The notes: generated by a model from the letters alone, not told the origin. Shown: positions 1 to 42,253, counted from the first letter of the stretch. The stretch: DNA of 64,000 bases from Candidatus Blackburnbacteria bacterium RIFCSPLOWO2_01_FULL_40_20 (GCA_001816475.1 MHCC01000027.1:11312-75311), one strand, 5' to 3'. Program-made: numbers and translations.

Positions 1-115
1 AATTAAAACAAAATGAAAAATATGAAAATTACAGAAGGAGATATGAAGAAATTATTAAAAACTCTTCTTTTTGGCAAAATTATGTTGAGCAATTTCAGTT
101 GGCAAACATTAAATA

Positions 116-18483: not shown

Positions 18484-18535
18484 GCAGGTGATCTAACTCA
18501 AATTAGACAAGGTCACCTGCTTTTCATTTCTCTTC
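18484..18535. terminator. intrinsic terminator hairpin (bidirectional position)
   Basis: GCAGGTGATC-17nt loop-GGTCACCTGC then TTTTCATTTCTCTTC; sits between the convergent sORF and M16 peptidase gene. Confidence 0.55.
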
Positions 18536-19846
18536 AAGTGATTTTCCCAATTTTTCTGCATCAGTAGGCCCAATCGCAGCAATGTAGAAATTATTCTTTT
18601 GAAAATACTTTGAAGCAACTTCAAATACTTCTTGCGACGATATTTTCTTATACATATTTTCTTGTTCATTCGGAGAAATTGACTTGCCTCGCATTGATTC
18701 TTGAAATCCATACCACCGGGCAAAATCTGTTACCGTTTCCATGTTCGAAATCAAACTGCCTGTAATGTGTCCTTTAGCTAACTTCATGTCACTATCGCTT
18801 AACTTTTTATTTGATAACTTTTCAAATTCCTCCTTTACCAACGATGTAATTTTGTATTGGTTTTCTTTTGATGCTGACGCACTAAAAAAAAGATATCCTG
18901 TCTCGTCCAAGTTGTCCTGCCACATATTCCAATTGTATATTAGTCCACCTTCGTCTCTTAATCTTTGTGGCAAACGCGCTCCAAAATATCCACCCAAACA
19001 ATCTGTAATAAAATCCAGAACGTGCCTGTCTTGGTGGGCATACGGTATTGTTTTTACACCAAACATTATAGCCGTTTGATCTGAATCGATAAAATTGACT
19101 TTTACCCTCTCGCCTGAGTTTGATACCTCATTTTGACTATGAAGAAAAGATTTTCTGTTATAGATTGTCGAATATTCATCAAACAATTTCACTGAACTCT
19201 CAAGGTCAACATCCCCCGCTACAATAAAGACTGTTGAGTCGGCCAAAAAATGATCACTAATGAAATTCCCAACATCGCGAGTCGATATATTTTTAACATC
19301 TTTTTCAACACCAGTACAAGGATGAGACAAGCATGTTCCTTTAAAAAACAGAGGGTTCCATGCAAAATCCCATATCGCTGTTTCAGGATTTTCCCGACGC
19401 TTCAAGATTTCTTCTTTTACAACACCCTTCTCCTGTTCCAAACCTTCGTTGTTTATAATTGGATTTACGAGTGTTTCAAAAAGTATTTCAATTCCTTTTT
19501 TAAGTTGTAGTTTTGGTAAATGAATCATGTGCCTTTGGTATTCAATCCAAGTAAAGGCATCGTGCCACCCTCCATGTTGATTTATGGATTGTGAAAGTAA
19601 TGCTGAAGAAGGGTAGTTTTTTGTTCCGTTAAAAAGCATGTGCTCCGTAAAGTGAGCAAGTCCTGGCCGATTTGATGGATCATGCCGAAACCCGGCCTTT
19701 ATGTAGGCTGAAATTGTAACAGGAAATGCACCAGGAATTTTTATAACACCCAAAGTTGATCCATTGTTTAGTCTGGTCTTTTGATAAAAAGTTTGCTTGC
19801 GCATGATGTAATTATATGACAAAAGGCTTGGCAATAAAAATAACAA
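18524..19846 (-). CDS. M16 family zinc metallopeptidase (insulinase/pitrilysin-like)
   Basis: Inverted zincin motif HFTEH (GLAHFTEHMLFNG); more likely start at ATG 19804 (MRKQTFYQ), track start is TTG. Confidence 0.8.
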   Translation of the reverse strand: MLFLLPSLLSYNYIMRKQTFYQKTRLNNGSTLGVIKIPGAFPVTISAYIKAGFRHDPSNRPGLAHFTEHMLFNGTKNYPSSALLSQSINQHGGWHDAFTWIEYQRHMIHLPKLQLKKGIEILFETLVNPIINNEGLEQEKGVVKEEILKRRENPETAIWDFAWNPLFFKGTCLSHPCTGVEKDVKNISTRDVGNFISDHFLADSTVFIVAGDVDLESSVKLFDEYSTIYNRKSFLHSQNEVSNSGERVKVNFIDSDQTAIMFGVKTIPYAHQDRHVLDFITDCLGGYFGARLPQRLRDEGGLIYNWNMWQDNLDETGYLFFSASASKENQYKITSLVKEEFEKLSNKKLSDSDMKLAKGHITGSLISNMETVTDFARWYGFQESMRGKSISPNEQENMYKKISSQEVFEVASKYFQKNNFYIAAIGPTDAEKLGKSLEEK

Positions 19847-20320: not shown

Positions 20321-20466
20321 GGAAGTAAGTTTTGCGGAAAGCTCAACTTAGTTAAACTCACGCTGAGTAAAAAAGTCAAGGTCAATAGAAATCCTGTGTC
20401 TAATCTGTATGGCTAAGGCTGTTCCTCCGGCAAGATATCCCTCTTTAATTTCAGTAATGTTTGAAA

Positions 20467-20781
20467 CTAACTGGATAGCCCGAAGTGTATCGGGGAGTAA
20501 GGTTTTTGTAAACATGGCACCTGTTTTTTATCCAAGCCAAGTATGTCGGCCCAAAAATTCCCTGTTAGCCTATCAAGATCGCGCGTACCTAAAACTACTT
20601 TTTTTATTACTTCGATCCCGTATGTTTTTATCAGCCAACGTATATCGCTAAAATTGCCCCTATCTAAAATCCGTTTTGTAATAAAAAAAATGTCCTTTTG
20701 AACCTCTAATTTTTCAAATTCTATGTCCCAAAAATATGGCCTAAAATTTTCGGGAACTCTCGTTTCTCCGCCTTGTTTCAT
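20467..20781 (-). CDS. hypothetical small protein (possible partner or N-terminal remnant of nucleotidyltransferase gene)
   Basis: 104 aa ORF immediately upstream of AbiEii-like fragment. Confidence 0.25.
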   Translation of the reverse strand: MKQGGETRVPENFRPYFWDIEFEKLEVQKDIFFITKRILDRGNFSDIRWLIKTYGIEVIKKVVLGTRDLDRLTGNFWADILGLDKKQVPCLQKPYSPIHFGLSS

Positions 20782-21918: not shown

Positions 21919-23007
21919 ATGGGTAGTAAACAAAAATTTAAATTAAATCTAAATTGGATAGTTAAAGAAGAAAAAGACCAAATTAGCCTCAATTCACCCT
22001 ATGGAGAGAAGAAAAAATATACACCTTCAAAACATCTGTTAGAATTTTTAATAATCAAAAGTTGTATCAATCAGCCAAAAAGTTTAAAACTAATAACTCA
22101 AGATATACAAAACGTGCTCAACGTGTCGCAAAAGGAAGTGGAAAACAAGATAAGTGAATTATTAAAAGCTAAAATATTCAGCTATAATACAACATCTGGG
22201 AATACTTTCTCCACAAATGAATTAGACAGGTATAAATGGCAACTGGAATTTTTTACTTCATTTGAATCGTTAAAAAACTCTAAATATGACATACAAAATA
22301 ATTTAAAAAACAGTCACATCGCCATCATCGGCATAGGAGGCCAAGGAAGTATCATCGCTCAAATACTCGTAGCTATGGGGATAGGAAAACTAACAATAGT
22401 AGATGGTGATACCATTGAAAGAAGTAATTTGACTAGACAACTGGCATATAATGATAGCGATATTGGTAAATACAAAGTAGAAGTGCTCAAATCAAGGCTG
22501 AAACTACAAAATCCATATACCAAAATAACTCCAATGAGGCAATATGTAACCTCAAAAAAAGATTTTATGGATATTATAAATGGTAAAGATTTTGTAATTT
22601 TGTGTGCAGATAAACCTCTCGTTAAGTTAGGGAGGTGGTTAAACAAAGTAGCCCTATCTGAAAGAATACCTTATTTAGGGGTTAGTGGAAATTGGATAGG
22701 CCCTATCTGTATACCCTTTAAAACACCCTGTTTTGAATGCGTATTGTCCCACCAAATAAATAAGGACAAAGATTTTGAAAAATATCTAAAGACATTGGAA
22801 AAACTCAAAGAAATTCCTAGGCCATCTTTTGGAGTTAGACCGATTTTATCAGGAACGTTAATGGCTTTACAAGTAATTAAATATCTCACAAAGGTTATGG
22901 ACGTTGAGATTTTAGAAGGTAGATTTAGAGTCAACATAGATTTAACTACAGAGTTTGAAAAGATAAAACTAGATAACAATTGTAAGGCATGCGGAAATAC
23001 AAAATGA
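21919..23007 (+). CDS. E1-like (ThiF/MoeB/HesA) enzyme with N-terminal RRE/winged-helix-like extension (TOMM C-protein-like)
   Basis: IAIIGIGGQGSIIAQILVAMGIGKLTIVDGDTIERSNLTRQ ThiF nucleotide-binding signature starting ~aa 135; ~130-aa N-terminal extension; 19-nt overlap with YcaO gene. Confidence 0.8.
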   Translation: MGSKQKFKLNLNWIVKEEKDQISLNSPYGEKKKYTPSKHLLEFLIIKSCINQPKSLKLITQDIQNVLNVSQKEVENKISELLKAKIFSYNTTSGNTFSTNELDRYKWQLEFFTSFESLKNSKYDIQNNLKNSHIAIIGIGGQGSIIAQILVAMGIGKLTIVDGDTIERSNLTRQLAYNDSDIGKYKVEVLKSRLKLQNPYTKITPMRQYVTSKKDFMDIINGKDFVILCADKPLVKLGRWLNKVALSERIPYLGVSGNWIGPICIPFKTPCFECVLSHQINKDKDFEKYLKTLEKLKEIPRPSFGVRPILSGTLMALQVIKYLTKVMDVEILEGRFRVNIDLTTEFEKIKLDNNCKACGNTK

Positions 23008-24227
23008 AATTCTCTGCTTATCCACTAGATTATCCCCTAGGAGTTCCCAAGCTCCCTGGTTATGTGGTTAAGGCTCCTCGAATATCACAATCATCATCTG
23101 ATGCAAAAAAAATAAGCAACATTGTAGGCGCGAGTGTAGGTCTTGAAAATAATAATGCACTACAAAGAGCCTATGGCGAAGCAATTGAAAGATATTGTTT
23201 GTATCAATACAATGAAACTAATTTTCAACAACATCATACAAACAAGACAGACGTTACAAAAATATTTAGTAAATTTATTCTCTATGACGATAATCAATAT
23301 TGTGATAAAAATTTTCCCTACAGGAAACCGTGCGACACCAAGAAGTTTTTTGTTGTTCTAGGAGAAAGTTTGCTTAATGGCTCACAAAAATATTTACCTG
23401 TAGATCTGGTTTATCCCCGGCATAAGAAAGATCATCAGAGGATTGATTCAATGAATCCCAGTGGGTCTGCTTCTGGCAACACCAACCAACTAGCTATTCT
23501 AAATGGTTTGTGTGAAGTTATTGAAAGAGATTCTTTGATGTGTGCTTGGTTAACTTCTTCACATTTTTATCAGCTGCCATTGCGATTTGTCAAAGATGCA
23601 AGCGTCAATAAATTATTAAATATAATTAAAAACTCTAAACTTAATTTAGTCATCTATTTAGTGGTTAATGATATGAACATGGTTACTGTTGTTGCAGTAT
23701 TGACTTCTAAAACCGCACCTTATATGTCTTTTGGATCGGCAATGACTCTTGAGATTATCCAATCAATAAAAAAAGCGATTGAGGAGTCAATTATGATTAG
23801 AAGGTCGCAACTAATCCTGTATGAACAAGACAATAACAAGCGCCAAAACAGAAAGGAAATATTAGAGTTAAGTGATCATATTATGGTTCCTACTAATAAA
23901 ACTAACGTAGCAGAAATAAAGAGAACAATGGGTAATAAATTATTAAGCTTTAATCAATATAGAAAAATTTTGTCTAAGGCGCCAGTGAGTTTATACGATC
24001 TATTAATGCGATTAGATCAAAAATATTTTGAACCTTGGTGTGTTGATATTGCCCCTAAAGAAATTAAGGAAAGTGGGTTTTCTGTTTGTAAAATTTTAAT
24101 ACCCGGACTACATCCTTTAGAAATAAATCAGAACTATTTACATAATGATCCTAGAAGATTACAATCTTTTATAAATACGAGCGTTGCCGTGACAAGAGTA
24201 AATAAGTTTCCACATCCGTTTGGATAA
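22989..24227 (+). CDS. YcaO-domain protein (ATP-dependent peptide backbone-modifying enzyme)
   Basis: GASVGLENNNALQRAYGEAIERY and NPSGSASGNTNQLAILNGLCEVIERDSLMCAW YcaO ATP-binding motifs; C-terminus KFPHPFG (Pro-rich YcaO tail). Confidence 0.85.
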   Translation: MRKYKMKFSAYPLDYPLGVPKLPGYVVKAPRISQSSSDAKKISNIVGASVGLENNNALQRAYGEAIERYCLYQYNETNFQQHHTNKTDVTKIFSKFILYDDNQYCDKNFPYRKPCDTKKFFVVLGESLLNGSQKYLPVDLVYPRHKKDHQRIDSMNPSGSASGNTNQLAILNGLCEVIERDSLMCAWLTSSHFYQLPLRFVKDASVNKLLNIIKNSKLNLVIYLVVNDMNMVTVVAVLTSKTAPYMSFGSAMTLEIIQSIKKAIEESIMIRRSQLILYEQDNNKRQNRKEILELSDHIMVPTNKTNVAEIKRTMGNKLLSFNQYRKILSKAPVSLYDLLMRLDQKYFEPWCVDIAPKEIKESGFSVCKILIPGLHPLEINQNYLHNDPRRLQSFINTSVAVTRVNKFPHPFG

Positions 24228-25715: not shown

Positions 25716-27350
25716 TTAGTTCACTTTAATATTGTTGGTCTGCAGAAAATATTCCAACTCTAGTACATTCAGAAGAAAACTCATTGCGTCGCCTTCGAAA
25801 TATTCCTCAACTTTACCTTTTTTAATATCGTGCACAATTTCCTCTGCCTTTATCCAACCTTTTTCTCCCAATCTAGAATTTTTTAATATGGAAAGCACAA
25901 CCTTTGGTCTTTCTGTTAAATAGCGCCCCACATGTTCCTCTGCACCCTGTTTTTGCCTAAATTGTTCTGTAATGAATATATCTGTTCTCATGCGAAAAAT
26001 TTCTTGTTTTGACGGAGTCGAACCTAAGCTGCGTGGCATGCCCATCGCCACACCAATTAAACCAGGATCAATAAAAGGTGTTATTGGCCAAACCCCTGTT
26101 TCCCAATTAATTAAAAAAGAATCATGCCCAACACCGATAGCAGAAGGCGAAAAAAGAGAGTCTTGTATGTTTTTCTCTTGGAACCTTGTTTTATCGAGAA
26201 ATATCTCTAATCCCTTATTACTTAATATTTTACCGATACCATATTTGAGTTTCCATATGGAATAAAAATATTCTTGTTGCAAAGAATAACGAAGATTTAT
26301 ATCAACTGCATTCTTGTTTGACCATAACACTTCATCACCGCCAACTCCCTGAAAATAAACATTGTTACCGTCACTTTTTAATACTAATAAATACTCGTAC
26401 AATTCAGACTTGTTTGTTTGATTTGGATCTAACTTCAGCCATTTGTTATAACTAAGAGTTGAAAATGGGAAGATATTTTCAATAGAAACGAGTTTTGATA
26501 CCAAGTCATGTTTCTTCACAAATTGATTAACCACGACAGGGTCAGTGTCTTCCAACATTGTGCTGGCTACACGTGAGTAACAATTAAATTGTCTATTCGT
26601 ACTATTTTTGAGCAAATAACAAACAAGGCTGCTATCAAATCCTGATGTTAAATCCGCGGCAAACTTGATATCTTTTAAAACAACCAATCTTTCCCTTACC
26701 CTTTCACAAAGTGAAGCAATAAAAGCATTTGTAAAATCACTTAAAGAACTGTGTTGAACAGTTTGAATATTTCTCTCGTACCAATTAATATCAACAGTAT
26801 TATTAAGCCGATATGAATCGCCATATCTATATTCAAACAAAACTGCTGGCGGAATTTGTCCAATCTCTTTTATTACAGTCCTGTCAGTAATAAATATGTT
26901 ACGCGAGATGTAATCTAGCGCGCTATTGTTGTCCATGCTTGGAGATTCAATTTCCTTCAAAACATTATGAAAGCTGGTTGATAAAACAATAGAATCACCA
27001 GCCATTGAAAAGAAACAGGGAAATTTCCCTGTTTGGTCAGTTAAGACTAATAATCGTTGTTGATCAAAATCACAAAAAAGTATAAGGAAATCCCCAACCA
27101 GACTTCCCAATTCGTTCCACTTCTCCGATTTGCAAAGTCTCAATAATTGCCTCGCGCTGATTTTCTTGCCATAGTCAATAAAATAACCTGCGCATAAACA
27201 ACCGTCGGCTTCCTCGCGAAAATCCGGAGGAAACTTATTCGCAGGAAGTTTGAGATTTTTCCTTATGGAATTTTTAAAAGTCAGCTTGTCAGAAAAACCC
27301 GACTTGCTTAGTTTCAAGAAAAAATGTTCTCTAAGTTTCATATTCTGCAA
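25716..27350 (-). CDS. asparagine synthetase-like adenylating enzyme lacking glutaminase nucleophile (lasso-cyclase-like), paralog 1
   Basis: 544 aa, PP-loop-like LTSGFDSSLV, no N-terminal Cys2; ~50% identical paralog at 36631-38247; start overlaps PqqD-like gene by 20 nt. Confidence 0.7.
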   Translation of the reverse strand: MQNMKLREHFFLKLSKSGFSDKLTFKNSIRKNLKLPANKFPPDFREEADGCLCAGYFIDYGKKISARQLLRLCKSEKWNELGSLVGDFLILFCDFDQQRLLVLTDQTGKFPCFFSMAGDSIVLSTSFHNVLKEIESPSMDNNSALDYISRNIFITDRTVIKEIGQIPPAVLFEYRYGDSYRLNNTVDINWYERNIQTVQHSSLSDFTNAFIASLCERVRERLVVLKDIKFAADLTSGFDSSLVCYLLKNSTNRQFNCYSRVASTMLEDTDPVVVNQFVKKHDLVSKLVSIENIFPFSTLSYNKWLKLDPNQTNKSELYEYLLVLKSDGNNVYFQGVGGDEVLWSNKNAVDINLRYSLQQEYFYSIWKLKYGIGKILSNKGLEIFLDKTRFQEKNIQDSLFSPSAIGVGHDSFLINWETGVWPITPFIDPGLIGVAMGMPRSLGSTPSKQEIFRMRTDIFITEQFRQKQGAEEHVGRYLTERPKVVLSILKNSRLGEKGWIKAEEIVHDIKKGKVEEYFEGDAMSFLLNVLELEYFLQTNNIKVN

Positions 27351-27606
27351 TTATCCCTTCTTCCAACATCTGTTTTATGAAAACCTTAACTGCAGAAATT
27401 TTTTGGCCAAGTTCTTTTGCAAGTTCAATAATTTGTATCCCAGGGTGAGAATTAATTTTAAAGAGGATCCAGTAGCCGCTAGAATTAACTTTAATATATC
27501 TTTTACTTTTCCAACTAAAAACGATGGTTGAATAACCGTTCCTTTTATCAATGGCGGGGTTAAAAATGACGGATAAAGGATTAACAATAAAACCTGTTTT
27601 CTCCAT
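27331..27606 (-). CDS. PqqD-like small protein (RiPP recognition element-like), paralog 1
   Basis: 91 aa; TIVFSWKSKRYIKVNSSGYWILFKINSHPGIQIIELAKELGQ matches PqqD/RRE pattern; translationally coupled to downstream AsnB-like gene. Confidence 0.6.
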   Translation of the reverse strand: MEKTGFIVNPLSVIFNPAIDKRNGYSTIVFSWKSKRYIKVNSSGYWILFKINSHPGIQIIELAKELGQKISAVKVFIKQMLEEGIIAEYET

Positions 27607-27616
27607 TCTGAATTAA

Positions 27617-27769
27617 TTAACTAGGGGTAGCCTTAGGATATCGGGTTATATCTATCAGCACACTCTTGACGTTGCCTAATTCGATCATCCCGCCTAGTAT
27701 TTCTGCGGTAGGTTCCTCTTCTACTTCAAGTTTTAATTCAGACATCTTCTCAAACTTATTTTCTACCAA
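27617..27769 (-). CDS. candidate precursor peptide (50 aa) with double-glycine-type leader
   Basis: TTG start 5 nt after GGAGGTGA; MVENKFEKMSELKLEVEEEPTAEILGG | MIELGNVKSVLIDITRYPKATPS; first gene of operon; the longer 63-aa track ORF starts upstream of the -10 box so is not credible. Confidence 0.35.
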   Translation of the reverse strand: MVENKFEKMSELKLEVEEEPTAEILGGMIELGNVKSVLIDITRYPKATPS

Positions 27770-27796
27770 GGTCCTCACCTCCAATTCCCAAGCTTT

Positions 27797-27826
27797 ATTA
27801 TACCGCAAGTCGTCAATTTGTGACTA
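27797..27826 (-). promoter_or_regulatory. candidate promoter (TAGTCA-N18-TATAAT) for precursor/PqqD-like/AsnB-like operon
   Basis: Perfect TATAAT at 27797-27802 (minus strand), -35-like TAGTCA at 27821-27826. Confidence 0.4.
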
Positions 27827-31983: not shown

Positions 31984-33735
31984 ATGTCAAGAAAAGAGTA
32001 CCTGCCATACGGCAGAATATTCAATAGGCTTGCTCAAGGAAGCGAGGCTCGCAACGCTCAAAGGGACCATTTGAGCCTAGAGCCTCAACAAAAGGTGCCT
32101 GAACCGGCGCCCGGTGAGATGTCCCCCGAAACCGCCCCCGCCTTTACCCCCTCTGCCCCAACCACCACTCTTGAGTCACCCGCCCCTTTCACCCTTACTA
32201 CCCTTACCCAAGAAATCACAACAACCACAGCTTCCGAAAAACCGGCTCAGGCGCAAATAATAGAAAACATCGCCGCTCCAGAAACAAAAACTCCAGGAGT
32301 ATTAGGATTTTATAAGAAGCTTAAAACCCCAATTCACATTGCTGCTGTAGTAATTACTATGACAGCCGGACAACTATTAGGTCGCAGCCCAAGCGAAGGC
32401 AAAGCAAAGGAAGGAATAAAACCAGGACAAGGCATAACAGAAATCCAAGACGCCGGCATGCCCTCAAAACAAGCTATTGAAGGAACAAGAAAAGAGCTGG
32501 CAATAAACCCTGAGATTAAAACATATACGGACTACAAAGTAATTGATTTGAAAAGCAACGGCAATGAGCTGGTGACGATTTCAGAGGTTGGGGGAAAAAG
32601 GTATGTGAGCACTAACTCTAAAGATAGTATAGGTAACGATATTATAAAGAGTGTTGGAACCCCACCTTTTTATGCACTTTCAGCCGCAAGATCTGGAAAT
32701 AATATTGTTGTTGTGGGAGACAAAGAAGCCCGATCCAACCAAGGCAGAGCATGGTTCACAACTGACGCGGGCAAGAACTGGAGATTAATTGAAAGTAGTG
32801 TTGGAACAATGTGGGCAGTGCAGCTTACCCCGGACAATAAATATGCCTATATTTCAGCTTCAAGCGTGAATCTTGAAAATGGAGTGCTTGTTTCGCGTTT
32901 AGACCTTGCAAATTCAACAGTAACAAACTTTACGGTATCGGGTACTCCTTCGGGAGAATCTATACGCATTCTGACCCCATTAGTGGCGGTAGAGGGTTCA
33001 TATAAAAGTTATGCTGCCATACCTCTCAACACGGGGTATTACGAGATCACCCATTTAGCAGATAGAATAGATGCTGTCAGGTTTAATATTGATGAAGGTT
33101 ACGCCAGAGGAGAAATTACTAATTTTACAAACAGCCAAGGAGAGCAAGAAGTTTGGCTGATTAATAACGATGTTGGAGGTTATCCTCCAAATAATTCAAG
33201 CCGGAGAACTGGAACCATTTATCGCAACATCGATAACGTTTTAAGTAGCGTTATACAACCAAAAACTTCCTTCCATCCAGAAGCTGGAACAAATAGCGGC
33301 ATAGTAGTATCGACAGCTGCAGCTGAAGTTCACCTAGATCTGGGCTTTATGGCTGTTGGAGCCGAAATCGGCGATGGCGGGTTAAGTACTAAAATCGAAA
33401 CATTCCCGATATCTGATCCTGTTAACTTAGAAAAAAGAGAACTAGTCCCTCAAGACGGAGATTGGCCTCAGATTTTATCAAACAAAGAACGAGTGGAGGT
33501 CAGATCCTTGAAAGTTTTGAGCGTAGAAGGGAAAAAGGTTTTAGTTGCGAACATTCAAAAATGGGAATATGTTTACGACTCTTCCACAAACACTGAAAAG
33601 CTTGTTTTCCAAACGGGGGGGCTACTAGAAAGGGATATTACCCAGGGAGTTTCATCAGAAAAACAATGGAGGAAAGCTTCTTCAATTGAAGAAATAATAA
33701 AACATCAAGTCTATATACCAAATGTGGTTAGGTAA
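31984..33735 (+). CDS. membrane-anchored protein with Pro/Thr-rich linker and BNR/Asp-box beta-propeller-like domain
   Basis: PT-rich region aa 35-85, TM helix IHIAAVVITMTAG, Asp-box-like TTDAGKNW. Confidence 0.45.
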   Translation: MSRKEYLPYGRIFNRLAQGSEARNAQRDHLSLEPQQKVPEPAPGEMSPETAPAFTPSAPTTTLESPAPFTLTTLTQEITTTTASEKPAQAQIIENIAAPETKTPGVLGFYKKLKTPIHIAAVVITMTAGQLLGRSPSEGKAKEGIKPGQGITEIQDAGMPSKQAIEGTRKELAINPEIKTYTDYKVIDLKSNGNELVTISEVGGKRYVSTNSKDSIGNDIIKSVGTPPFYALSAARSGNNIVVVGDKEARSNQGRAWFTTDAGKNWRLIESSVGTMWAVQLTPDNKYAYISASSVNLENGVLVSRLDLANSTVTNFTVSGTPSGESIRILTPLVAVEGSYKSYAAIPLNTGYYEITHLADRIDAVRFNIDEGYARGEITNFTNSQGEQEVWLINNDVGGYPPNNSSRRTGTIYRNIDNVLSSVIQPKTSFHPEAGTNSGIVVSTAAAEVHLDLGFMAVGAEIGDGGLSTKIETFPISDPVNLEKRELVPQDGDWPQILSNKERVEVRSLKVLSVEGKKVLVANIQKWEYVYDSSTNTEKLVFQTGGLLERDITQGVSSEKQWRKASSIEEIIKHQVYIPNVVR

Positions 33736-33743
33736 TAATTTAC

Positions 33744-35498
33744 TTAAGGAGTAATTAATTTACAACCATCCGTATCTGGGTTTGAGGTTTGACAATCAGG
33801 AATAAGGACCTTTTGAACGGGAGTTGAGCCGTCTTCCAAATAAGCAGCAGTGTACATGTTTTTACTACTAAAAGCGTCACTAAACCGAATTTCCCAACTG
33901 ACCTTATTTCCTTCCACACCCCTCCCCCAAACAACATACATCTCCGTATCAGAATCATTTTTTACCGGCCTTCCATCACTCGGAATCGAACTCCAAAGTG
34001 TTTTGTTCCATACATAAAAAGTTCCGTCTGAGTCGTATCTAAGTAAAATTCCATTTTGGGGGTTTGCTACCCTACTTGAAGCATCCGTAACAAACGTGTT
34101 TGCGTCTGTCAGTTTTGCACCCAGCGTTGAGTTGCTGTTATACATTGCCACATAATATTTATTAACAGAACTACTTCCTGGAGTGACTGTCAGCGAAACT
34201 TTCATCGGATTAACCCAACTTGAGCCGTTGGGAGCAATCTTGCCGGAATGAGTCGTAACTCCACTAAAGGTAGTTTGACTAGCTGTGGCGTTTGCAATTT
34301 TGAGAGTGCTGATTTTTGGGGCCGAATTGCCAACGGTCAATGAAGCATAACTCCCATCTCCGCAAGGCCAAAAGCCGCTATAAGACCAAGACGTAACGTA
34401 GGGGTTGCCAGCACAATTAAGATTATTTTCTCCATTATGGACTGTAGTACCAAAATAATAAGTTCCTGTAGATTTTGGGGTCCATTCTGCTCTCCTAATA
34501 TTTCCACCCATGACATAAAAAGTGTCAATCGTTCCTCCTCCTATCCGGCACCAAGGAGACCCTGCGTTCGCTGGAACTCCTCCATTTTCAGAGCATTCGG
34601 AAGGAAGGCTGGCGGATCCACCATTGTCCTTTGTAACGAAAATGTATGCGTTAGACACATAGCCGGTTTGTCCAGCCATCCCTAATAAGCTACCAATATA
34701 TTCGGTATACACCAGAGTATCTACTAAATCGCCTACTAAAGCAGCGCAACTACTTGCGCTTTTACATGTCACATATCCCGTGGGGGGATAATTGGCATTA
34801 ACAACTGCTCTGTCCAACTCTGTATCTCCCGCAAAAAGAACAAAGAGTTTTCCAGGAAAGTTTATCCAATTTATATCATCTGATCCACTAGGATTACCGT
34901 TTACCGGACTTCCATTTGTTCTACTTACCGTTGTACTCGACGAGCTTAAAGTTGTGTTTGTTCCATCGCTGCCCCAATTATATAAATTACCAGAGTGTGA
35001 AGTTAAATCGAATGCATACAATCCCACGTTGCTCGCATTTGAAGTGGTGAAGCTTACATTTGGCAGGGGAATAGTAACACCAGTCGAACTACGACAGAGG
35101 TTGTTGTTATGGTTTAGAACACAAGGGTTGTTTGACGTTGTGATTGATCCTGTCGGGTCGCTGGGGGCGGGGGCAGACTCTCCTCCTCCTCCACCAGATG
35201 GGACTCCTGGAGTGTAACAATATCCGCATTCCCCTGAGCAAACAGCACCCGTCACACAACCAACACCTTGAATCCCGCTGCCCGAACAATTACCACTTTG
35301 ATTACAAACGTAAGTCGTTACTGCAGGATTACAGGTTCTGCTATCTCCGCTGCCGTCACTACACCATTGAGTTCCGTCGCACCCTTCAGTGCTACAACTA
35401 CAATCACCCCAAGACTCACAAGCATTTGCAATGCTTGTTTTTGGTAAAAATAAAAAATAGAACGTTGCAGCAACTGAAAGGAAGATTAACTTAAACAT
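33744..35498 (-). CDS. secreted Cys-rich protein with long Asn/Ser/Thr/Gly-rich domain
   Basis: Signal peptide MFKLIFLSVAATFYFLFLPKTSIANA; ~90-aa block with >20 Cys (CESWGDCSCSTEGCDG..), 584 aa. Confidence 0.5.
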   Translation of the reverse strand: MFKLIFLSVAATFYFLFLPKTSIANACESWGDCSCSTEGCDGTQWCSDGSGDSRTCNPAVTTYVCNQSGNCSGSGIQGVGCVTGAVCSGECGYCYTPGVPSGGGGGESAPAPSDPTGSITTSNNPCVLNHNNNLCRSSTGVTIPLPNVSFTTSNASNVGLYAFDLTSHSGNLYNWGSDGTNTTLSSSSTTVSRTNGSPVNGNPSGSDDINWINFPGKLFVLFAGDTELDRAVVNANYPPTGYVTCKSASSCAALVGDLVDTLVYTEYIGSLLGMAGQTGYVSNAYIFVTKDNGGSASLPSECSENGGVPANAGSPWCRIGGGTIDTFYVMGGNIRRAEWTPKSTGTYYFGTTVHNGENNLNCAGNPYVTSWSYSGFWPCGDGSYASLTVGNSAPKISTLKIANATASQTTFSGVTTHSGKIAPNGSSWVNPMKVSLTVTPGSSSVNKYYVAMYNSNSTLGAKLTDANTFVTDASSRVANPQNGILLRYDSDGTFYVWNKTLWSSIPSDGRPVKNDSDTEMYVVWGRGVEGNKVSWEIRFSDAFSSKNMYTAAYLEDGSTPVQKVLIPDCQTSNPDTDGCKLITP

Positions 35499-36630: not shown

Positions 36631-38247
36631 TCAGTCAGAAATCTTAATATTATTTTGCTGAATGAAATACTCCAATTGTAGGGTAGCAAGTAAAAAACTA
36701 AGAGCATCTCCTTCAAGATATTTATGGGTGTCCCCCTTTTTCATATCATCGATAATCTCGCTAGCTTTTATCCATCCTTTTTGCGCCAAAATGGATTTCT
36801 TGAGAACTGAGATTATAAAATCTTGTTTCTTATCCAAAAAAAGTTGGACATGACCTACCGGGCCTTCTTTTGGTCTAAACTGGCTAGGAGCAAAAATCTC
36901 TTCGCGTGTTTTCCAAATTTCTTGTTTTGATAAAGCCTTAGAACCTTTACGGGGAATCATACGCGCTAGTTGCACCAACCGGGGATCGATAAAGGGAGTC
37001 ATTGGCCAAATCCCAGTTTCCCAGTAAACGGGAAAAAGACCGGAATTTACCAATATGGCCGATGGTGAAATAATTGAAGGGAATATTTTTTTTCTTTGAA
37101 AACGCTCTTTGTCTAGTAACGCTTGTATACCTTTGTCTGTAAAAATCTTATCGAGACCAAATTTTAATTTTTTAACGGTCCAAAAATATTCTTCCTGGAC
37201 AGGGAAAGGGGAAAGTACATCCATCGCATGGGCTTTATATATCTCGTCTCCTCCCTCGCCGGTAAATTCGATTTTTATTCCTTCTTTAGCTGGATAGGAG
37301 TAAAAGTGGAATAGTAACCCTTCAGCAATCTGATTAGGGATTTTTGCTGCCCGCTTTAAATCGTTCTTGCTCGCAAAAGGATAGAAAGGATCTTCGTTGA
37401 TATATTTAATAATCAAGCCGTATTTTTGCGCTAATTCTTCCACTATTTTGGGGTGTGTATCACCAAGTGTATATTTAGAGATACCACAGTAGCACTTAAA
37501 ACTTTTTTTTGTCTGTTTTTTGAGTAAATATACGACAAGAGAGCTGTCGAAGCCGGATGATATGTCCCCCGCGAAAGGAAGGTGCTCTATCGAAGAAAGC
37601 CGCTCGGCTATAGTTCGCTTCAATGATAAAAGAAAGTCATTCGAAAATTTTTCAGCGGATGCGTAAGGTTGCTGTCGTTGCTCGAGAAATTTGTCCAAAT
37701 CCACTAATGGTGTCAAGGAGTACGAGAAGTCGTTCTTAATCTTCAAAAGAGTTGCTGGCGGGACCTGATTAATCTCAGCAACAACTGTTTGATCACTTAC
37801 TAGTATTTGTCGGGAAATGAGTCCAAAAGCAGCTCCAATGTTAAGAGTAAGAGAGGACAATTTATCCTTCACTGTTTCAAAATCTGTTGACAGAACGAAT
37901 TTATCGTCCTCAACTGAGAAAAAACAAGGGAATTTCCCCGTTTGATCGGTGAGAAGAAAAATTTCGTTTTTTGCGAAATCACAATATATAATTAAAAAAT
38001 CTCCAACCAAATTTCCCAAGAGATCCCAGCCGCCTTCTTTACAAAGCTCAACGATTTCTTCGAACGTTACTTTCTTGTTGTAACAAACGAAATAACCAGC
38101 ACAAAAGAAACCTTTACCTGTCAAATGGAAGCTAGGCGGAAATGTTCTTTCGGGTAATACAAATCCTTTCGCTACTATCTCCGACAACAGTCCATCTTTT
38201 AATAATTTTTTAGGAATTTCTAAATAAAGGTGGGAGAGTTTCTTCAT
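36631..38247 (-). CDS. asparagine synthetase-like adenylating enzyme (lasso-cyclase-like), paralog 2
   Basis: 538 aa, DISSGFDSSLVVYLLK PP-loop-like, no N-terminal Cys; paralog of 25716-27350; ATGA overlap with PqqD-like gene. Confidence 0.7.
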   Translation of the reverse strand: MKKLSHLYLEIPKKLLKDGLLSEIVAKGFVLPERTFPPSFHLTGKGFFCAGYFVCYNKKVTFEEIVELCKEGGWDLLGNLVGDFLIIYCDFAKNEIFLLTDQTGKFPCFFSVEDDKFVLSTDFETVKDKLSSLTLNIGAAFGLISRQILVSDQTVVAEINQVPPATLLKIKNDFSYSLTPLVDLDKFLEQRQQPYASAEKFSNDFLLSLKRTIAERLSSIEHLPFAGDISSGFDSSLVVYLLKKQTKKSFKCYCGISKYTLGDTHPKIVEELAQKYGLIIKYINEDPFYPFASKNDLKRAAKIPNQIAEGLLFHFYSYPAKEGIKIEFTGEGGDEIYKAHAMDVLSPFPVQEEYFWTVKKLKFGLDKIFTDKGIQALLDKERFQRKKIFPSIISPSAILVNSGLFPVYWETGIWPMTPFIDPRLVQLARMIPRKGSKALSKQEIWKTREEIFAPSQFRPKEGPVGHVQLFLDKKQDFIISVLKKSILAQKGWIKASEIIDDMKKGDTHKYLEGDALSFLLATLQLEYFIQQNNIKISD

Positions 38248-38507
38248 TTTTCAATAATAATATTCTCTTTACTCATGGTCCCTAAAAACTTCCCAATTTT
38301 GGACACATCTACTTTAAGAAGCTGGTAAATCTCTTCTATGCCTATTCCAGGATTTTCATCAATTGTCCTCAGAATATTATACCCAAACTTATTAACTTTG
38401 ATAATTTCTTCCGTCACAGAATTAAAAACAATTGTTTTATAATTATTTTTCTGGTCAAGTTGAGGACAAAATAGAACCGCAAGAGAATTTATAAAATACT
38501 TCATCAA
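38244..38507 (-). CDS. PqqD-like small protein (RRE-like), paralog 2
   Basis: 87 aa, TIVFNSVTEEIIKVNKFGYNILRTIDENPGIGIEEIYQLL parallels paralog 1. Confidence 0.6.
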   Translation of the reverse strand: MMKYFINSLAVLFCPQLDQKNNYKTIVFNSVTEEIIKVNKFGYNILRTIDENPGIGIEEIYQLLKVDVSKIGKFLGTMSKENIIIEK

Positions 38508-38543
38508 AAAAACAGCAGGAAACTCTATTAACTTCTAAGGTGC

Positions 38544-40205
38544 TTAATCCAATGGGACATACCTAGTCCTGTCTATGTTCATTCTTTTACCAACATTCAA
38601 TTCTCTTATCTTACCTAACATTTCTACGGTTGGTTCAACATCCGCAATCAATTCTCTCTCAATTTCCTTTGGACTCGCCTTACCTACTAACCCTAAATAC
38701 CAGTTATTAGCTGTAAAATATTTTTTTGCTACTTTCGCGACGGAGTCGATTGTAATTTCTTTATATATTTTTGCTATTTCTTGTGGAGTGTAACTTTTAC
38801 CCGAGAGAAACTCTTGTTCACCGTACCATCCATTATAATCCGCAGTTGTTTCCATATTTAAAAGAAGTTCACCTATTGTTTGACTTTGCGCTATTTCAAA
38901 TTCTTCCTTCGAAAATTTACCTTTAGCAACTCTCTTAAATGAATAACATATCTGTTTAATTGTCTCGTTTAAAAATTTTCTACCTGTGGACGTTTTGAAA
39001 TAAATATATCCTTCCTCCTGGAGTAAATCCTGATCTAATACCCAATCATAGATAAACCCCTTCTCTCTTAATTCATTAACCAATATGCCAGAAAAGGATC
39101 CTCCAAGTAATCGACTAATTAAACGTAAAGCGTGTGTGTCGTTGTGGTCTTTTTTTATAGTTTTGAAACCAAACATTAGATAAGTATTATCTGTATTATT
39201 TGGTAATATTTTCAAAGAACCGCCCTTATGTGGCGCAATTTTTTGTGCGGCATTTTTCCCTTTATTCTTTATATCACCAAAGTATTTTTCTACAATGTTT
39301 AAAGCGTAATTTGTATCGAAGTTTCCGGCTATACAAAGAACTCCTTTGTTGAAAGATATTTCATCTATAAATTTTTGTACATCAGTTATTGATATATCAT
39401 TTAGATCATTAACATTTCCTGTGTATGGTCTTGCGAGTGAACTCCCCCTCCAAAACGCTTCATTCCAAGCATAATCCCAAACTGCTATGTTTGGCTCAAA
39501 TCTGTCCTTGTTAATTTCCTCTATCACAGATTGTTTCTCTTTTTGTAATTCAACGTTTTTTAATAGCGGGTAACGTATAGTTTGTTGTAAAACGTCAATT
39601 CCATGTATGTCCAAGAGTTTATTAAACTCTTCGTCGACAAAACCACCAATCGCACAACATTTTAATCTCATTGCTTCGGAAATTAAATACAAATTTTGAG
39701 CTACATGTCCACATTCCATCAATATAAACCTATAACCTCGCTCTTCATATTTTATTCTGGTTCTATCCAGAACGGCGGATAATATTATCACACACGACGA
39801 GTCCCCAACAAAAGATTGTCCGGTATTGTCAACTAGAAAATTTTTGTTAGATCCTTTTCTTAATTGTTCAATTGAGTTGTTTTTAACATTAAAATGATAT
39901 ACTCCTTTTTTTAATGTCTTAACATTATTTACCTTTCTTGGCTTTCCCGACTCAATCAACATTAAAAACCAATGAACAGTCACCATAGTAATTTTTTTAT
40001 TCGCATCATTTTTAACTTCGTAAGTAAACTCACCAAGATATTCAACCGGTTTTGCCCTAAATCCGGTTTCTTCCAATACTTCCCTTATTGCAGTTTGCTG
40101 AAGACTTTCTCCTGGTTCTTGATGTCCTTTTGGTAAAGATGTGTCCTTAACTGCTACGCGATCAATGGCTACAACACTAGCAATGCCATTTTCAACAGTC
40201 ACCAC
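38544..40205 (-). CDS. fusion protein: NUDIX hydrolase + nitroreductase-fold (SagB-type-like) fragment + M16-peptidase C-terminal (non-catalytic) domain
   Basis: Perfect Nudix box GHQEPGESLQQTAIREVLEETGF; nitroreductase C-terminal signature YRFILMECGHVAQNLYLISEAMRLKCCAIGGFVDEEF; last ~330 aa align to the C-terminal part of the M16 protein at 18524-19846 without HxxEH. Confidence 0.65.
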   Translation of the reverse strand: MVTVENGIASVVAIDRVAVKDTSLPKGHQEPGESLQQTAIREVLEETGFRAKPVEYLGEFTYEVKNDANKKITMVTVHWFLMLIESGKPRKVNNVKTLKKGVYHFNVKNNSIEQLRKGSNKNFLVDNTGQSFVGDSSCVIILSAVLDRTRIKYEERGYRFILMECGHVAQNLYLISEAMRLKCCAIGGFVDEEFNKLLDIHGIDVLQQTIRYPLLKNVELQKEKQSVIEEINKDRFEPNIAVWDYAWNEAFWRGSSLARPYTGNVNDLNDISITDVQKFIDEISFNKGVLCIAGNFDTNYALNIVEKYFGDIKNKGKNAAQKIAPHKGGSLKILPNNTDNTYLMFGFKTIKKDHNDTHALRLISRLLGGSFSGILVNELREKGFIYDWVLDQDLLQEEGYIYFKTSTGRKFLNETIKQICYSFKRVAKGKFSKEEFEIAQSQTIGELLLNMETTADYNGWYGEQEFLSGKSYTPQEIAKIYKEITIDSVAKVAKKYFTANNWYLGLVGKASPKEIERELIADVEPTVEMLGKIRELNVGKRMNIDRTRYVPLD

Positions 40206-40282
40206 TACCCCGACACGTCTTGATAAAGTTGGTAGTCTAAATCCTTATTGTCATTACTCATAAATTTATTCTGTCAAGCTAT

Positions 40283-41356
40283 TTAATAGCTATTCATCAG
40301 TTGTATTACTTGCATATTCTCAAATCCTTCAATCGTATGCGGATCTGCAGTCGTTATAATTGTTTGCTGCTTACCCACAATTGAAATTACAACATCTCTG
40401 TGTTTGTGGTCTAATTCTGAAAATATGTCGTCCAATAAAAGCACTGGCCTAACCTTAGTCTTTTCTTCAATAAATGAAAGTTCTGCAAGCTTCAACCAAA
40501 GCACTCCCATCCGCTGTTCTCCCCGTGAACCAAAAATTGCCAAATCTCTTTTGTCACTCGTAGTTTGTCGTTTATCGTATGTCGTAAACTTCATGTCGTC
40601 GCGGTGTGGCCCAACCAATGTTTTTGCAGCTGCTACTTCTTCGTTTGCATATTTCTCAAGACGCATAGGCGAAATTATACTTTTGTCGTATTCTAAAGAA
40701 AAAGATTGGTCATTTAGGGCGGGTGTGTTATTAACAAATTCAATAAATTCTTCCCGTTTTGAAGTCAGATATTCACCATTTTTAATCAACAATTGGTCCC
40801 AAAATAAAAGTTGAGACCTTGATACTTCACTATCTCTTATTCTCTCTAATAGTTTATTTCTTTGCCGCAGTCCTTTTTCGTAAGATAACAAGGACCTTGT
40901 ATATTCGCGATCCGTTTGGACTAAAACACTGTCTAAAAATCTACGACGTAGTGATGGAGACTCTGTAACCAGCTCCATGTCCCATGGTCCAAAAAGTACG
41001 ACTTTTAAAATACCTGCAAAGTTGTAAAGCCGTTTTGCAACTCCGTTTACAAAAAACCTTTTCTTATTTCCACTGGAGTTGTTTTTCACAATCACAATTT
41101 CTAGCGCATCTTTGTCTTTATCTGTATCTGTATCTATAATGCCATTCGCCCTTCCCACTTCTTCTCCCTCTTGGACCATTTCGTCCTCACGTCGTGCTTT
41201 AAAAGACCTGCCTGTTGCTAACAAATTTATCGCCTCAAGGATGTTTGTCTTCCCAACAGCGTTAGACCCCACAATAATCGTCATAAGATTCTCAAAATCC
41301 AACTTCTTTTCTTTGAAGTTTCGAAAGTTCCCTAAATGAAGTGCTGATATTTGCAT
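40283..41356 (-). CDS. recF: DNA replication and repair protein RecF
   Basis: Walker A GSNAVGKTN, SMC-like RecF architecture, 357 aa. Confidence 0.85.
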   Translation of the reverse strand: MQISALHLGNFRNFKEKKLDFENLMTIIVGSNAVGKTNILEAINLLATGRSFKARREDEMVQEGEEVGRANGIIDTDTDKDKDALEIVIVKNNSSGNKKRFFVNGVAKRLYNFAGILKVVLFGPWDMELVTESPSLRRRFLDSVLVQTDREYTRSLLSYEKGLRQRNKLLERIRDSEVSRSQLLFWDQLLIKNGEYLTSKREEFIEFVNNTPALNDQSFSLEYDKSIISPMRLEKYANEEVAAAKTLVGPHRDDMKFTTYDKRQTTSDKRDLAIFGSRGEQRMGVLWLKLAELSFIEEKTKVRPVLLLDDIFSELDHKHRDVVISIVGKQQTIITTADPHTIEGFENMQVIQLMNSY

Positions 41357-42253
41357 TTACTTTTGGCAATTGGGGCAATAATATGTTCCGCGCCCTCCCA
41401 AACGAATTTTTAGAATTATTCCCCCACAATTATTTGGACAAGGTTTGCCTTCGCGGCCGTAAACCAGAAAATGCTCTTGATAGCCACCCCCTTGTCCCAA
41501 GACATTTACAAAGTTCATTTCTGTTGCCCCACCATATTTTAGCCCTTGTTTTAATACTTCAATGATTGATTCATATAACTTAGACTGTTCTCTTAGACTT
41601 AGACTGTTTGCTTTTCTTGTTGGGTCTATCCCCGATAAAAACAACGCGTCATTTGCATAAATATTTCCAACCCCGCCGATTTTTTTCTGATCCATTAATA
41701 AAACTTTGATTTTTTGCAGAGTTCCACTAACAATCCCCCTAAAAACATCAAGGGTCAAGAAGGCTTGCCCTGAGCGAGTGTTAGCGAGTCGAATGGGTTC
41801 AGGTCCTAACTCGTGGATAAAAGGAAAATCTACGACACTTTCGGTAGGCAAAATCCTAATCCAACTAAACTGCCTTATATCGTTGTAATATAAATTTCCT
41901 CCTTTATCTAAATTGAGGATAAGATGCGTGTGTTTGCCTGGCAATGGCCCAGTAAGTTCACTTGATAATATGGATTCTTTTGGCCTATTGGGACCCAAGT
42001 AAATGAACTGTCCTGTTAATTTTATATGAGCAACTAAAGAAAAATTATTGTCTAAATCCAAACTCAACACCTTGCCAAAACGCCTTGCCCCAATTATTTT
42101 TCCACCAGTCAATTTTTCCGTATCGCCTTCTTTAACAATCTTTGGAAGCCGTACATCAACACCAACCACTTCGTGACCTACAATGTACTTCTCCATTCCC
42201 ATTCTTATGGTTTCAACTTCAGGAAGTTCTGGCATCTTGCAATACTGAAGCAC
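41357..42253 (-). CDS. mutM: formamidopyrimidine-DNA glycosylase
   Basis: N-terminal MPELPEVE catalytic Pro2/Glu3, C-terminal zinc finger CPNCQK. Confidence 0.85.
   Translation of the reverse strand: MLQYCKMPELPEVETIRMGMEKYIVGHEVVGVDVRLPKIVKEGDTEKLTGGKIIGARRFGKVLSLDLDNNFSLVAHIKLTGQFIYLGPNRPKESILSSELTGPLPGKHTHLILNLDKGGNLYYNDIRQFSWIRILPTESVVDFPFIHELGPEPIRLANTRSGQAFLTLDVFRGIVSGTLQKIKVLLMDQKKIGGVGNIYANDALFLSGIDPTRKANSLSLREQSKLYESIIEVLKQGLKYGGATEMNFVNVLGQGGGYQEHFLVYGREGKPCPNNCGGIILKIRLGGRGTYYCPNCQK

Follow-up and report, generated by a model that had tools for sequence, protein, structure and literature searches.

We analysed a 64,000-nucleotide stretch of Candidatus Blackburnbacteria bacterium RIFCSPLOWO2_01_FULL_40_20 (MHCC01000027.1:11312-75311; hereafter the window), in which a locus at 36631-40205 contains a 553-aa open reading frame (ORF) that a sequence-only reading had described as a fusion of Nudix, nitroreductase-like and M16C domains. 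Our best explanation, which we hold to be very probable, is that this ORF is not a multidomain enzyme but a chimera generated by deletions, and that the likely functional unit is the neighboring three-gene cassette of a peptide precursor, a RiPP recognition element (RRE; RiPP, a peptide synthesized ribosomally and then modified post-translationally) and an AsnB-like enzyme. The deletions that made the chimera are recent. ORF calling recovered the three minus-strand ORFs named in the sequence-only reading: the 553-aa ORF with a GTG start (38544-40205), a PqqD-like, lasso-B1-like RRE protein of 87 aa (38244-38507; ORF call and AlphaFold2 fold; the RRE itself is assigned to 38244..38504, 86 aa), and an AsnB-like ATP-dependent amide-forming enzyme of 538 aa (36631-38247; Pfam Asn_synthase E = 7e-7 and AlphaFold2 fold). 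The genes recF (40283-41356) and fpg lie upstream of the 553-aa ORF.

Pfam searches with the 553-aa ORF gave matches to NUDIX (PF00293, E = 2.4e-12), Nitroreductase (E = 9.6e-12) and Peptidase_M16_C (PF05193, E = 4.3e-30), and the Nudix box quoted in the sequence-only reading (GX5EX7REUXEEXGU) is present as GHQEPGESLQQTAIREVLEETGF. The nitroreductase (SagB-like) and M16_C assignments are upheld by Pfam and NCBIfam together. Three significant domain matches in a long uninterrupted ORF, which adjoins RRE and cyclase-like genes and recurs in many assemblies, could be read as a real multidomain enzyme or scaffold, in which Nudix, SagB-like oxidation and M16-like substrate binding are brought together for a hybrid RiPP pathway. 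We consider this very improbable: all of the domains are fragments, no YcaO gene is present in the locus, the genes are separate in a strain with 99.8% DNA identity, and a search of 5.8 billion proteins found no homolog with this architecture outside the ORF's own 90%-identity cluster, to which full-length homologs are confined. The next matches are ordinary M16 peptidases of 421-430 aa, which align over the C-terminal 57% of the query with 98%, 88% and 66% identity.

The Nudix fragment (aa 1-91; 39933..40205, minus strand) covers profile positions 17-93 of 134 and aligns to approximately residues 8-100 of the Nudix part of the homolog P0016. Its Nudix box is intact but its fold is incomplete: SagB sequence replaces the C-terminal part from residue 92, and there is no complete fold of ~130 residues with its own start. 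The next fragment (aa 92-202; 39600..39932, minus strand) belongs to the SagB family of dehydrogenases (TIGR03605, 92 bits against a cut-off of 78.4; profile positions 47-160 of 173), and its Pfam Nitroreductase match is likewise partial (positions 64-156 of 167). It is only the C-terminal part of such a protein, with 86% identity to residues 129-239 of the 252-aa SagB encoded by contig L003; the N-terminal 128 residues are absent, so the window locus has no FMN-binding half and no full-length SagB flavin mononucleotide (FMN) dehydrogenase. The M16 remnant (aa 203-512; 38670..39599, minus strand) consists of a near-complete M16_C domain (PF05193 profile positions 2-180 of 181) preceded by the tail of the catalytic Peptidase_M16 domain (positions 88-144 of 149, the last third of the profile, E = 0.044). 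The HxxEH zinc motif is missing from it. The remnant has 98% identity to residues ~100-416 of an intact 421-aa peptidase, P0002, whose HISEH motif falls within a 338-bp deletion described below. The homology that the sequence-only reading had seen to another M16 gene in the window (18524..19846, minus strand) is borne out at 35% identity over residues 202-519 (E = 1e-63); that paralog is intact, with an HFTEH motif and matches to both Peptidase_M16 and M16_C, and serves only as context here.

The last 37-41 residues of the 553-aa ORF are a precursor peptide, homologous to the small peptide of a paralogous locus elsewhere in the window (locus 1, below). This tail (38544..38669, minus strand) reads KEIERELIADVEPTVEMLGKIRELNVGKRMNIDRTRYVPLD followed by a stop codon. 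It is one residue apart (P for S), initiator Met aside, from a free-standing 42-aa gene on contig L001, and is the same sequence as the free-standing gene on contig L058; the locus-1 peptide ends in EEEPTAEILGGMIELGNVKSVLIDITRYPKATPS and the 553-aa ORF in DVEPTVEMLGKIRELNVGKRMNIDRTRYVPLD. The fusion protein therefore does not stand in place of a small peptide, as had been thought. The advice to look for a missed small ORF was nonetheless a good lead, and the peptide turned up as the tail of the 553-aa ORF itself.

The origin of the fusion is apparent from comparison with L001, the contig that carries the 98% M16 match. L001 has 99.8% DNA identity to the window and contains three separate genes; the sequence-only reading had asked whether the domains occur as separate genes in relatives. 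Their order is recF, a 215-aa ORF made of truncated Nudix and SagB parts, an intact 421-aa M16 gene (with HISEH), an intergenic region that has a promoter-like sequence and GGGGGTGA as ribosome-binding site, and finally an ORF of 42 aa that starts at an ATG of its own, MKEIERELIADVEPTVEMLGKIRELNVGKRMNIDRTRYVSLD. BLAST alignment blocks and junction sequences identified two segments of L001 that are absent from the window. Deletion 1 removed 338 bp (L001 2607-2944), and its junction at 39600..39604 on the minus strand joins the 3' end of SagB to approximately codon 100 of M16; contigs L055 and L058 have the same junction. Deletion 2 removed 126 bp (L001 3891-4016), and its junction (38659..38669, minus strand) contains one copy of an 11-bp repeat, AAGGAAATTGA, which codes for K-E-I-E. 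L001 has this repeat twice, 126 bp apart, in the C-terminus of M16 (PKEIEE) and at the start of the precursor (MKEIERE). The M16 stop codon, the promoter-like sequence, the ribosome-binding site and the precursor's ATG were all lost in deletion 2. Both deletions are in frame and yield a single reading frame. An indel joining separate genes, which the sequence-only reading had named as a finding that would refute it, is in substance what we found, except that the events are real deletions of 338 bp and 126 bp and not a sequencing indel. The proposal of a scaffold protein acting as substrate was right in that the ORF does end in a precursor peptide, but this is a by-product of deletion between direct repeats and not a conserved design.

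The N-terminus of the chimera has a further lesion. In the window the native Nudix start is a stub running from an ATG at 40261 to a TAG at 40207-40205 (40205..40261, minus strand; MSNDNKDLDYQLYQDVSG and stop), out of frame with the 553-aa ORF, and the TAG overlaps by one base the GTG at 40205. L055 has seven nucleotides (GGCTGGA) that the window and L001 miss, and its ORF is open from a proper ATG (MSNDNKDLDYQLYQDVSAGGVVV...) for 574 aa; without them the ATG at 40261 meets the TAG after 18 codons. The annotated GTG is merely the first start-like codon past this stop.

All four combinations of the two deletions exist in DNA from independent assemblies: both are present in the window and L055, neither in L001, only deletion 1 in L058, and only deletion 2 in L059. 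L058 has a 523-aa ORF ending in KEIEETVNLSL, followed by a free-standing precursor, the RRE gene and the AsnB-like gene. L059 combines deletion 2 with an independent 1-nt frameshift near M16 codon 27; this allele (ENA ERZ27254759 k141_1471083, positions 1-120) keeps the M16 N-terminus and is an M16-precursor fusion in which the peptidase was inactivated independently. A JGI protein from the chimera cluster, P0033 (385 aa), has a different tail (PHKVEEELLGITLEEKMKAKGIVVSEK...) after KEIEREL in place of the precursor, a further rearrangement at the same spot. Divergence between the window and L001 is mosaic: across window positions 38496-42205 the two are identical along 2.5 kb (fpg, recF and the initial part of the stub), and all 15 differences are in the remaining 1.7 kb. 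Mosaic divergence and the existence of all four deletion combinations point either to recombination between strains that occur together or to repeat-mediated deletions that arose more than once.

The window sequence is derived from a metagenome and there are short repeats at one junction, so we considered whether the fusion could be an artifact of assembly or sequencing. However, at least nine distinct sequences, from Candidatus Blackburnbacteria assemblies in NCBI, ENA, JGI and Logan, encode chimeras of 552-574 aa, and the NCBI carriers include three Rifle metagenome-assembled genomes (MAGs; OGY12491.1, OGY07327.1 and OGY08413.1) and one third-party annotation (TPA) MAG (HBL52127.1). Because the same junctions recur in independent assemblies, we conclude that the chimera is real DNA. 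A repeat of 11 bp is much shorter than the k-mers that assemblers use, and loss of the stretch between two direct repeats is a classic type of genuine mutation. An artifact is therefore extremely unlikely, the least probable of the explanations that we weighed.

The pieces of the chimera can be traced to another type of peptide cluster. L003, which carries the M16 gene with 88% identity, has a Cys-rich ORF of 53 aa, a YcaO gene (437 aa), a SagB-type nitroreductase (252 aa) and the M16 gene. L002, the 66% relative, also has YcaO, SagB and M16 in a row, preceded by a homologous peptide rich in Cys. Because these remoter relatives carry the full set, we interpret the 553-aa ORF as the remains of an eroded azole-peptide cluster. 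The window locus itself has no YcaO gene between recF and the cassette and no Cys/Ser/Thr-rich precursor, and there is no second SagB in the window. The only YcaO in the window (22989-24227) pairs with a ThiF-like gene and is an unrelated paralog, with 26-27% identity to the YcaO proteins of L002 and L003. A SagB dehydrogenase needs a YcaO partner, and YcaO is absent from the locus and present only in remoter relatives, so the SagB-like domain is not the sign of azoline oxidation that the sequence-only reading took it for. The same reading's proposal of an evolved Nudix-nitroreductase-M16C architecture with hybrid azoline-oxidation and macrolactam chemistry does not survive the truncation of the domains and their separation in L001.

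The simplest history, as far as it can be inferred from these relatives, would be stepwise erosion of a cluster of the thiazole/oxazole-modified microcin or linear azol(in)e-containing peptide (TOMM/LAP) type that lay beside a Nudix gene. The ancestral order downstream of recF would have been the Nudix gene, a small TOMM/LAP-type cluster (Cys-rich precursor, YcaO, SagB dehydrogenase and M16 peptidase) and the separate three-gene cassette. An older deletion would have extended from the middle of Nudix to the middle of SagB, taking the TOMM precursor and YcaO with it. Later, in this strain, the 338-bp deletion would have joined the SagB stub to M16 codon ~100, with loss of the HxxEH zinc site, the 126-bp deletion between the direct repeats would have brought the M16 C-terminus into frame with the cassette precursor gene, and the 7-nt frameshift would have separated the native Nudix start. 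The Nudix, SagB and M16 remnants are all predicted to be non-catalytic.

We then considered whether the chimera is under constraint. When the window is compared with L055, 11 codons of the chimera differ, 7 of them nonsynonymously, and recF and the genes for the RRE and the AsnB-like enzyme have no changed codon. M16 has been struck twice independently, by deletion 1 and by the L059 frameshift. This polymorphism pattern and the repeated inactivation of M16 suggest relaxed constraint, but the numbers are small and the evidence is supportive rather than conclusive. Several observations weigh on the opposite side. The synonymous and nonsynonymous counts between alleles are too few to distinguish neutrality from weak constraint. 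All three joints are in frame, which would have a chance of about 1 in 27 under neutrality, with the qualification that the window was chosen for its long ORF. Among the alleles seen, the one with both deletions is the most frequent, and in L055 it is open from its native ATG; the RRE and AsnB-like genes downstream are intact and do not differ from one fused allele to another. Because of the in-frame joints, the common allele and the intact downstream genes, selection may keep the chimera translated, either as a precursor with a giant leader or against polarity on the genes downstream. In a promoter and terminator scan of 36.4-41.5 kb, sites were no more numerous than in shuffled controls.

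The first of these possibilities is that the chimera works as a precursor in which some 510 dead N-terminal residues are a mere extension, and the RRE and AsnB-like enzyme modify the C-terminal core. It is compatible with an origin by deletion, and differs from our preferred explanation only on whether the tail is still used. Both the leader motif and the core are intact in the tail, the RRE and AsnB-like genes have 100% identity from one fused allele to another, the fused form predominates, and the reading frame of L055 runs uninterrupted from its native ATG to the stop codon of the precursor. Against this, the native start is frameshifted in the window, the fusion is limited to one species-level population in which it is polymorphic, and diversity is raised in the N-terminal part. 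We regard a functional giant leader as possible but doubtful, and keep it in consideration because a Lys side-chain nucleophile, as proposed below, would need neither a free nor a short N-terminus. In the window, just two routes to the precursor are left, translation as the tail of the chimera or a start at an internal TTG (codon ELIAD..) behind a purine-rich stretch, and this copy of the locus may be dying or tolerated.

In contrast to the chimera, the cassette of precursor, lasso-B1-like RRE and AsnB-like enzyme is a likely functional unit, and the window contains it twice. Locus 1 (25716-27808, minus strand) comprises a precursor gene (27617..27769) with a probable TTG start after GGAGGTGA and the sequence EPTAEILGGMIELGNVKSVLIDITRYPKATPS, a 91-aa RRE-like protein (27331..27606) and a 544-aa AsnB-like enzyme (25716..27350), the last two being paralogs of the locus-2 proteins. 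The two loci are indeed paralogous, as the sequence-only reading had noticed, but its figure of about 50% identity was too high: the AsnB-like enzymes are 42% identical and the RRE-like proteins 39%. In the AsnB-like family we found 79 clusters (at 50% identity) with E ≤ 1e-30 among 1.84 billion representative sequences, nearly all of them 530-545 aa long, and the members with organism names come from Blackburnbacteria, Woesebacteria, Amesbacteria and 'Microgenomates'. A scan of genome contigs gave seven loci. Across the 20 loci whose neighborhoods we compared (±6 kb), the AsnB-like gene (20/20) is accompanied by a gene for an RRE of ~90 aa (16/20) and by a small ORF upstream of the RRE. There is no recurring protease or transporter beside the cassette in these neighborhoods, and no transglutaminase-type B2 leader peptidase either there or among the window ORFs scanned with Pfam. 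L009 has an M16 peptidase gene of 433 aa (95-1396, minus strand) beside its cassette, the only other M16-cassette neighborhood among the 20 loci. Two remoter AsnB-like relatives, L056 and L057, have no recognizable cassette and gave no functional hint.

Sequence-profile searches of PDB were uninformative for both proteins–only generic MarR-type winged-helix matches for the RRE family, and just weak asparagine synthetase matches for the AsnB-like family–so fold comparison was needed. The AlphaFold2 model of the AsnB-like enzyme (predicted local distance difference test score, pLDDT, of 93) has a complete two-domain AsnB fold, and its Foldseek matches are TsnB9, AsnB, beta-lactam synthetase and carbapenam synthetase (E = 5e-18 to 1e-12, 11-16% identity). 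The PP-loop (SSGFDS) and a GEGGDE motif are invariant, with S231, G232, D234, G330, G332, D334 and E335 conserved throughout the family, and the enzyme lacks an N-terminal catalytic Cys. Scores against the NCBIfam lasso cyclase model NF033535 (34 bits for locus 2 and 47 bits for locus 1) are far below its cut-off of 525. The AsnB-like gene is translationally coupled to the RRE gene. A homolog search with the 87-aa RRE found only itself, and Pfam PqqD is the commonest family match of the RREs (20 of 25 members), below the gathering threshold in every case. The AlphaFold2 model of the RRE, built from an alignment of only three rows, has a pLDDT of 86; its best PDB matches are lasso B1 proteins (TbiB1, 5v1v/5v1u, template modeling (TM) score 0.75-0.76; TfuB1, 6jx3, TM score 0.72), followed by the RRE domains of TigE, SuiB, McbB and MccB. 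In the literature, we found no description of this cassette or of lasso-like systems in candidate phyla.

We assembled 26 cassette precursors (24 of them distinct). They share the motif P-x-x-E-x-[LIV]-G, which is mostly EPxxExLG. A Lys is located 8-10 residues past the LG anchor in all 26, and there is an Asp or Glu at K+5 or K+6 in 24; the other two (L009 and L042) stop four residues after the Lys, leaving a C-terminal carboxylate. In this pair (L009 3179-3404, ending K-MVSF, and L042 ~430-601, ending K-LVGH) there is no Asp or Glu downstream, and an acidic residue occurs just before the Lys, so they may represent a sub-type that uses the C-terminal carboxylate or the upstream acid. The tail of the chimera keeps EPxxExLG, the Lys and an Asp at K+5. 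All the other cassette precursors are free-standing genes of ~42-70 codons. Throughout the set there is no Thr at -2 and no conserved small residue (G/A/S/C) 7-9 positions ahead of the acid, and the C-termini are highly variable, with tails rich in R, Y, W and F.

Counted by hand, an amide between the Lys N-zeta and an Asp or Glu at i+5 or i+6 would close a ring of 23-27 atoms, whereas a ring from the alpha-amine (K1 to D6) would have 19. Known lasso rings have 22-29 atoms (G1-D7 to G1-E9). The RRE would bind the leader motif EPxxExLG; the AsnB-like enzyme would adenylate the conserved Asp or Glu (or the C-terminal carboxylate in the two exceptional relatives); and the activated acid would couple to the invariant Lys 5-6 residues upstream, giving a macrolactam with a ring of lasso size on a precursor whose leader is uncleaved. 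Because the ring size is in the lasso range and there is no leader peptidase, a side-chain macrolactam of this kind seems to be the most economical mechanism, though we infer it from sequence patterns only. It would also explain why no leader protease is found beside the cassette, since cyclization would need no leader cleavage. A point against this pairing is that a Glu occurs four residues past the LG anchor in ~22 of the 26 precursors and is a possible alternative partner. L035 lacks this upstream conserved Glu, which we considered as an acyl donor, and in L011 and L012 its position is shifted. The alpha-amine of an N-terminal Lys, another candidate nucleophile, ranks lower for us, since most members would then have 19-atom rings. 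Our tentative proposal, which we think has a real but minor chance of being correct, is that the cassette represents an undescribed class of RiPP in Microgenomates, in which a relative of lasso cyclases joins a Lys epsilon-amine to Asp/Glu (or the C-terminus) without removal of the leader. If so, the lasso-ring-sized macrolactams might even be threaded, and the fusion alleles–with a carrier of ~510 residues or a near-complete M16–would show that the enzyme pair tolerates enormous N-terminal extensions.

Two other chemistries would use the same genes. The cassette could make an ordinary lasso peptide or plain macrolactam if an unlinked housekeeping protease, such as an M16 peptidase or an enzyme that cleaves at the invariant Lys, took off the leader and freed the alpha-amine and the AsnB-like enzyme joined it to the Asp/Glu. 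The RRE is nearest to lasso B1 proteins, the enzyme weakly matches the lasso cyclase model, M16 peptidases are located near the cassette in the window and L009, and the aromatic- and Arg-rich tails resemble lasso plugs. But the M16 linkage is seen at just two of the 20 loci, none of which has a B2 protease nearby, the residues expected at -2 and at the first core position are not conserved, and alpha-amine rings would span only 5-7 residues, below the lasso range in most members. We judge this route to be unlikely. Alternatively, the AsnB-like enzyme could amidate or nitrilate a carboxylate (an Asp/Glu side chain or the C-terminus), as TsrC, ScdTA and PesC do. Both activities are known for asparagine-synthetase-like RiPP enzymes, of which ~300 more are uncharacterized (PMC13060819), and two precursors end shortly after the Lys. 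However, this would leave the invariant Lys at a fixed spacing from the acid unexplained, and it sits poorly with highly variable precursor C-termini and with an enzyme that has no N-terminal Cys for glutamine hydrolysis. We therefore view it as improbable, more so than the lasso route through an unlinked protease.

Elsewhere in the window there are other genes of possible relevance to peptide modification. At 21919-24227 (plus strand) a ThiF/E1-like protein (PF00899, E = 3e-43, with a weak match to the SagC-type TIGR03603) is followed by the overlapping YcaO gene mentioned above, which matches the SagD-type TIGR03604 at 175 bits, below the cut-off of 219. The two genes lack a SagB and sit between a toxin-antitoxin pair and cysS, and we identified no precursor there; they may form a separate system for azoline or thioamide peptides. 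A toxin-antitoxin pair of DUF6922/AbiEii type (19880-20781, minus strand) is near locus 1, and the same pair flanks cassettes in L005, L015 and L016. In the window, the AbiEii homolog is apparently split into ORFs of 55 aa (20348-20515) and 146 aa (19880-20320), suggesting another frameshifted gene. A radical SAM/SPASM protein of 345 aa (616-1653, plus strand), which might be a further peptide maturase, follows a 167-aa ORF that has no Pfam match. A B12-binding radical SAM protein of 574 aa (4064-5788, plus strand) is inside a set of sugar-modification genes. Just downstream of locus 2, at 31984-35498, are two convergent ORFs of ~583 aa that are rich in Cys, Gly, Ser and Thr, apparently secreted, and without a Pfam match. 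In one ORF at 11065-12036 (minus strand), a Colicin V production (CvpA) membrane domain is joined to a CAP/cysteine-rich secretory domain.

The flagged ORF is thus a well-documented case of deletion-driven gene fusion during RiPP-cluster decay in a candidate-phyla genome. For annotation, it shows that a long, clean ORF with three significant domain matches, entered in several MAGs under the name 'Nudix hydrolase domain-containing protein', can be a chain of pseudogene fragments that would pass for a new architecture if there were no near-identical comparator–a caution for fusion-based function prediction in the reduced genomes of candidate phyla. For evolution, it illustrates the stepwise erosion of a YcaO/SagB/M16 azole-peptide cluster with intermediate alleles still segregating, and the capture of a neighboring peptide gene by repeat-mediated deletion. 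For natural products, the cassette is a compact, protease-less relative of lasso systems with a conserved Lys...Asp/Glu signature and named members in Microgenomates.

The closest known systems to the cassette are the lasso peptide clusters with a split B protein. As in those, a small precursor gene is followed by an RRE of ~90 aa that superposes on TbiB1 and TfuB1 and then by an AsnB-fold enzyme with an intact PP-loop and no glutaminase Cys, and the leader has a Pro-containing motif ending in LG. Unlike them, the cassette has no B2 at any of the 20 loci, and its enzyme scores only 34-47 bits against the NF033535 cut-off of 525. The leader motif is EPxxExLG with no Thr at -2, where lasso leaders have YxxPxLx3G with Thr at -2, and the conserved core residues are an invariant Lys and an acid at +5/+6, in place of an N-terminal Gly/Ala/Ser/Cys and an acid at positions 7-9. 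The cassette is thus a variant of the lasso theme, and one that is undescribed as far as our searches reach. It is not the same as the class V lasso peptides gelatinamin and triculamin, in which a clostripain-like transpeptidase links a Lys to the C-terminus in the context of canonical B1, B2 and C proteins. Among AsnB-superfamily amide formers (beta-lactam synthetase, carbapenam synthetase, TsnB9, and TsrC/ScdTA/PesC), the enzyme shares ATP-dependent carboxylate activation and the whole-protein fold, but its substrate is presumably a ribosomal peptide presented by the RRE. It is probably one of the ~300 RiPP-associated asparagine-synthetase-like enzymes noted as uncharacterized (PMC13060819). 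The 553-aa ORF, for its part, resembles TOMM/LAP systems (SagBCD/McbBCD) in that its middle is a SagB-family fragment, and L002 and L003 carry the full set with proteins that are 66-88% identical; in the window, however, neither the precursor nor YcaO is left, the N-terminal 128 residues of SagB are missing and M16 has no zinc site, so that only a relic survives. It also recalls the precursors with large leaders (NHLP, Nif11 and the OphMA-type borosins), since a core peptide stands at the C-terminus of a large chain that descends from enzyme folds. The large part of those precursors is functional and conserved along with the core, whereas here the fusion was made by deletion, is polymorphic, and is found in a single population, within a cluster of at least 90% identity.

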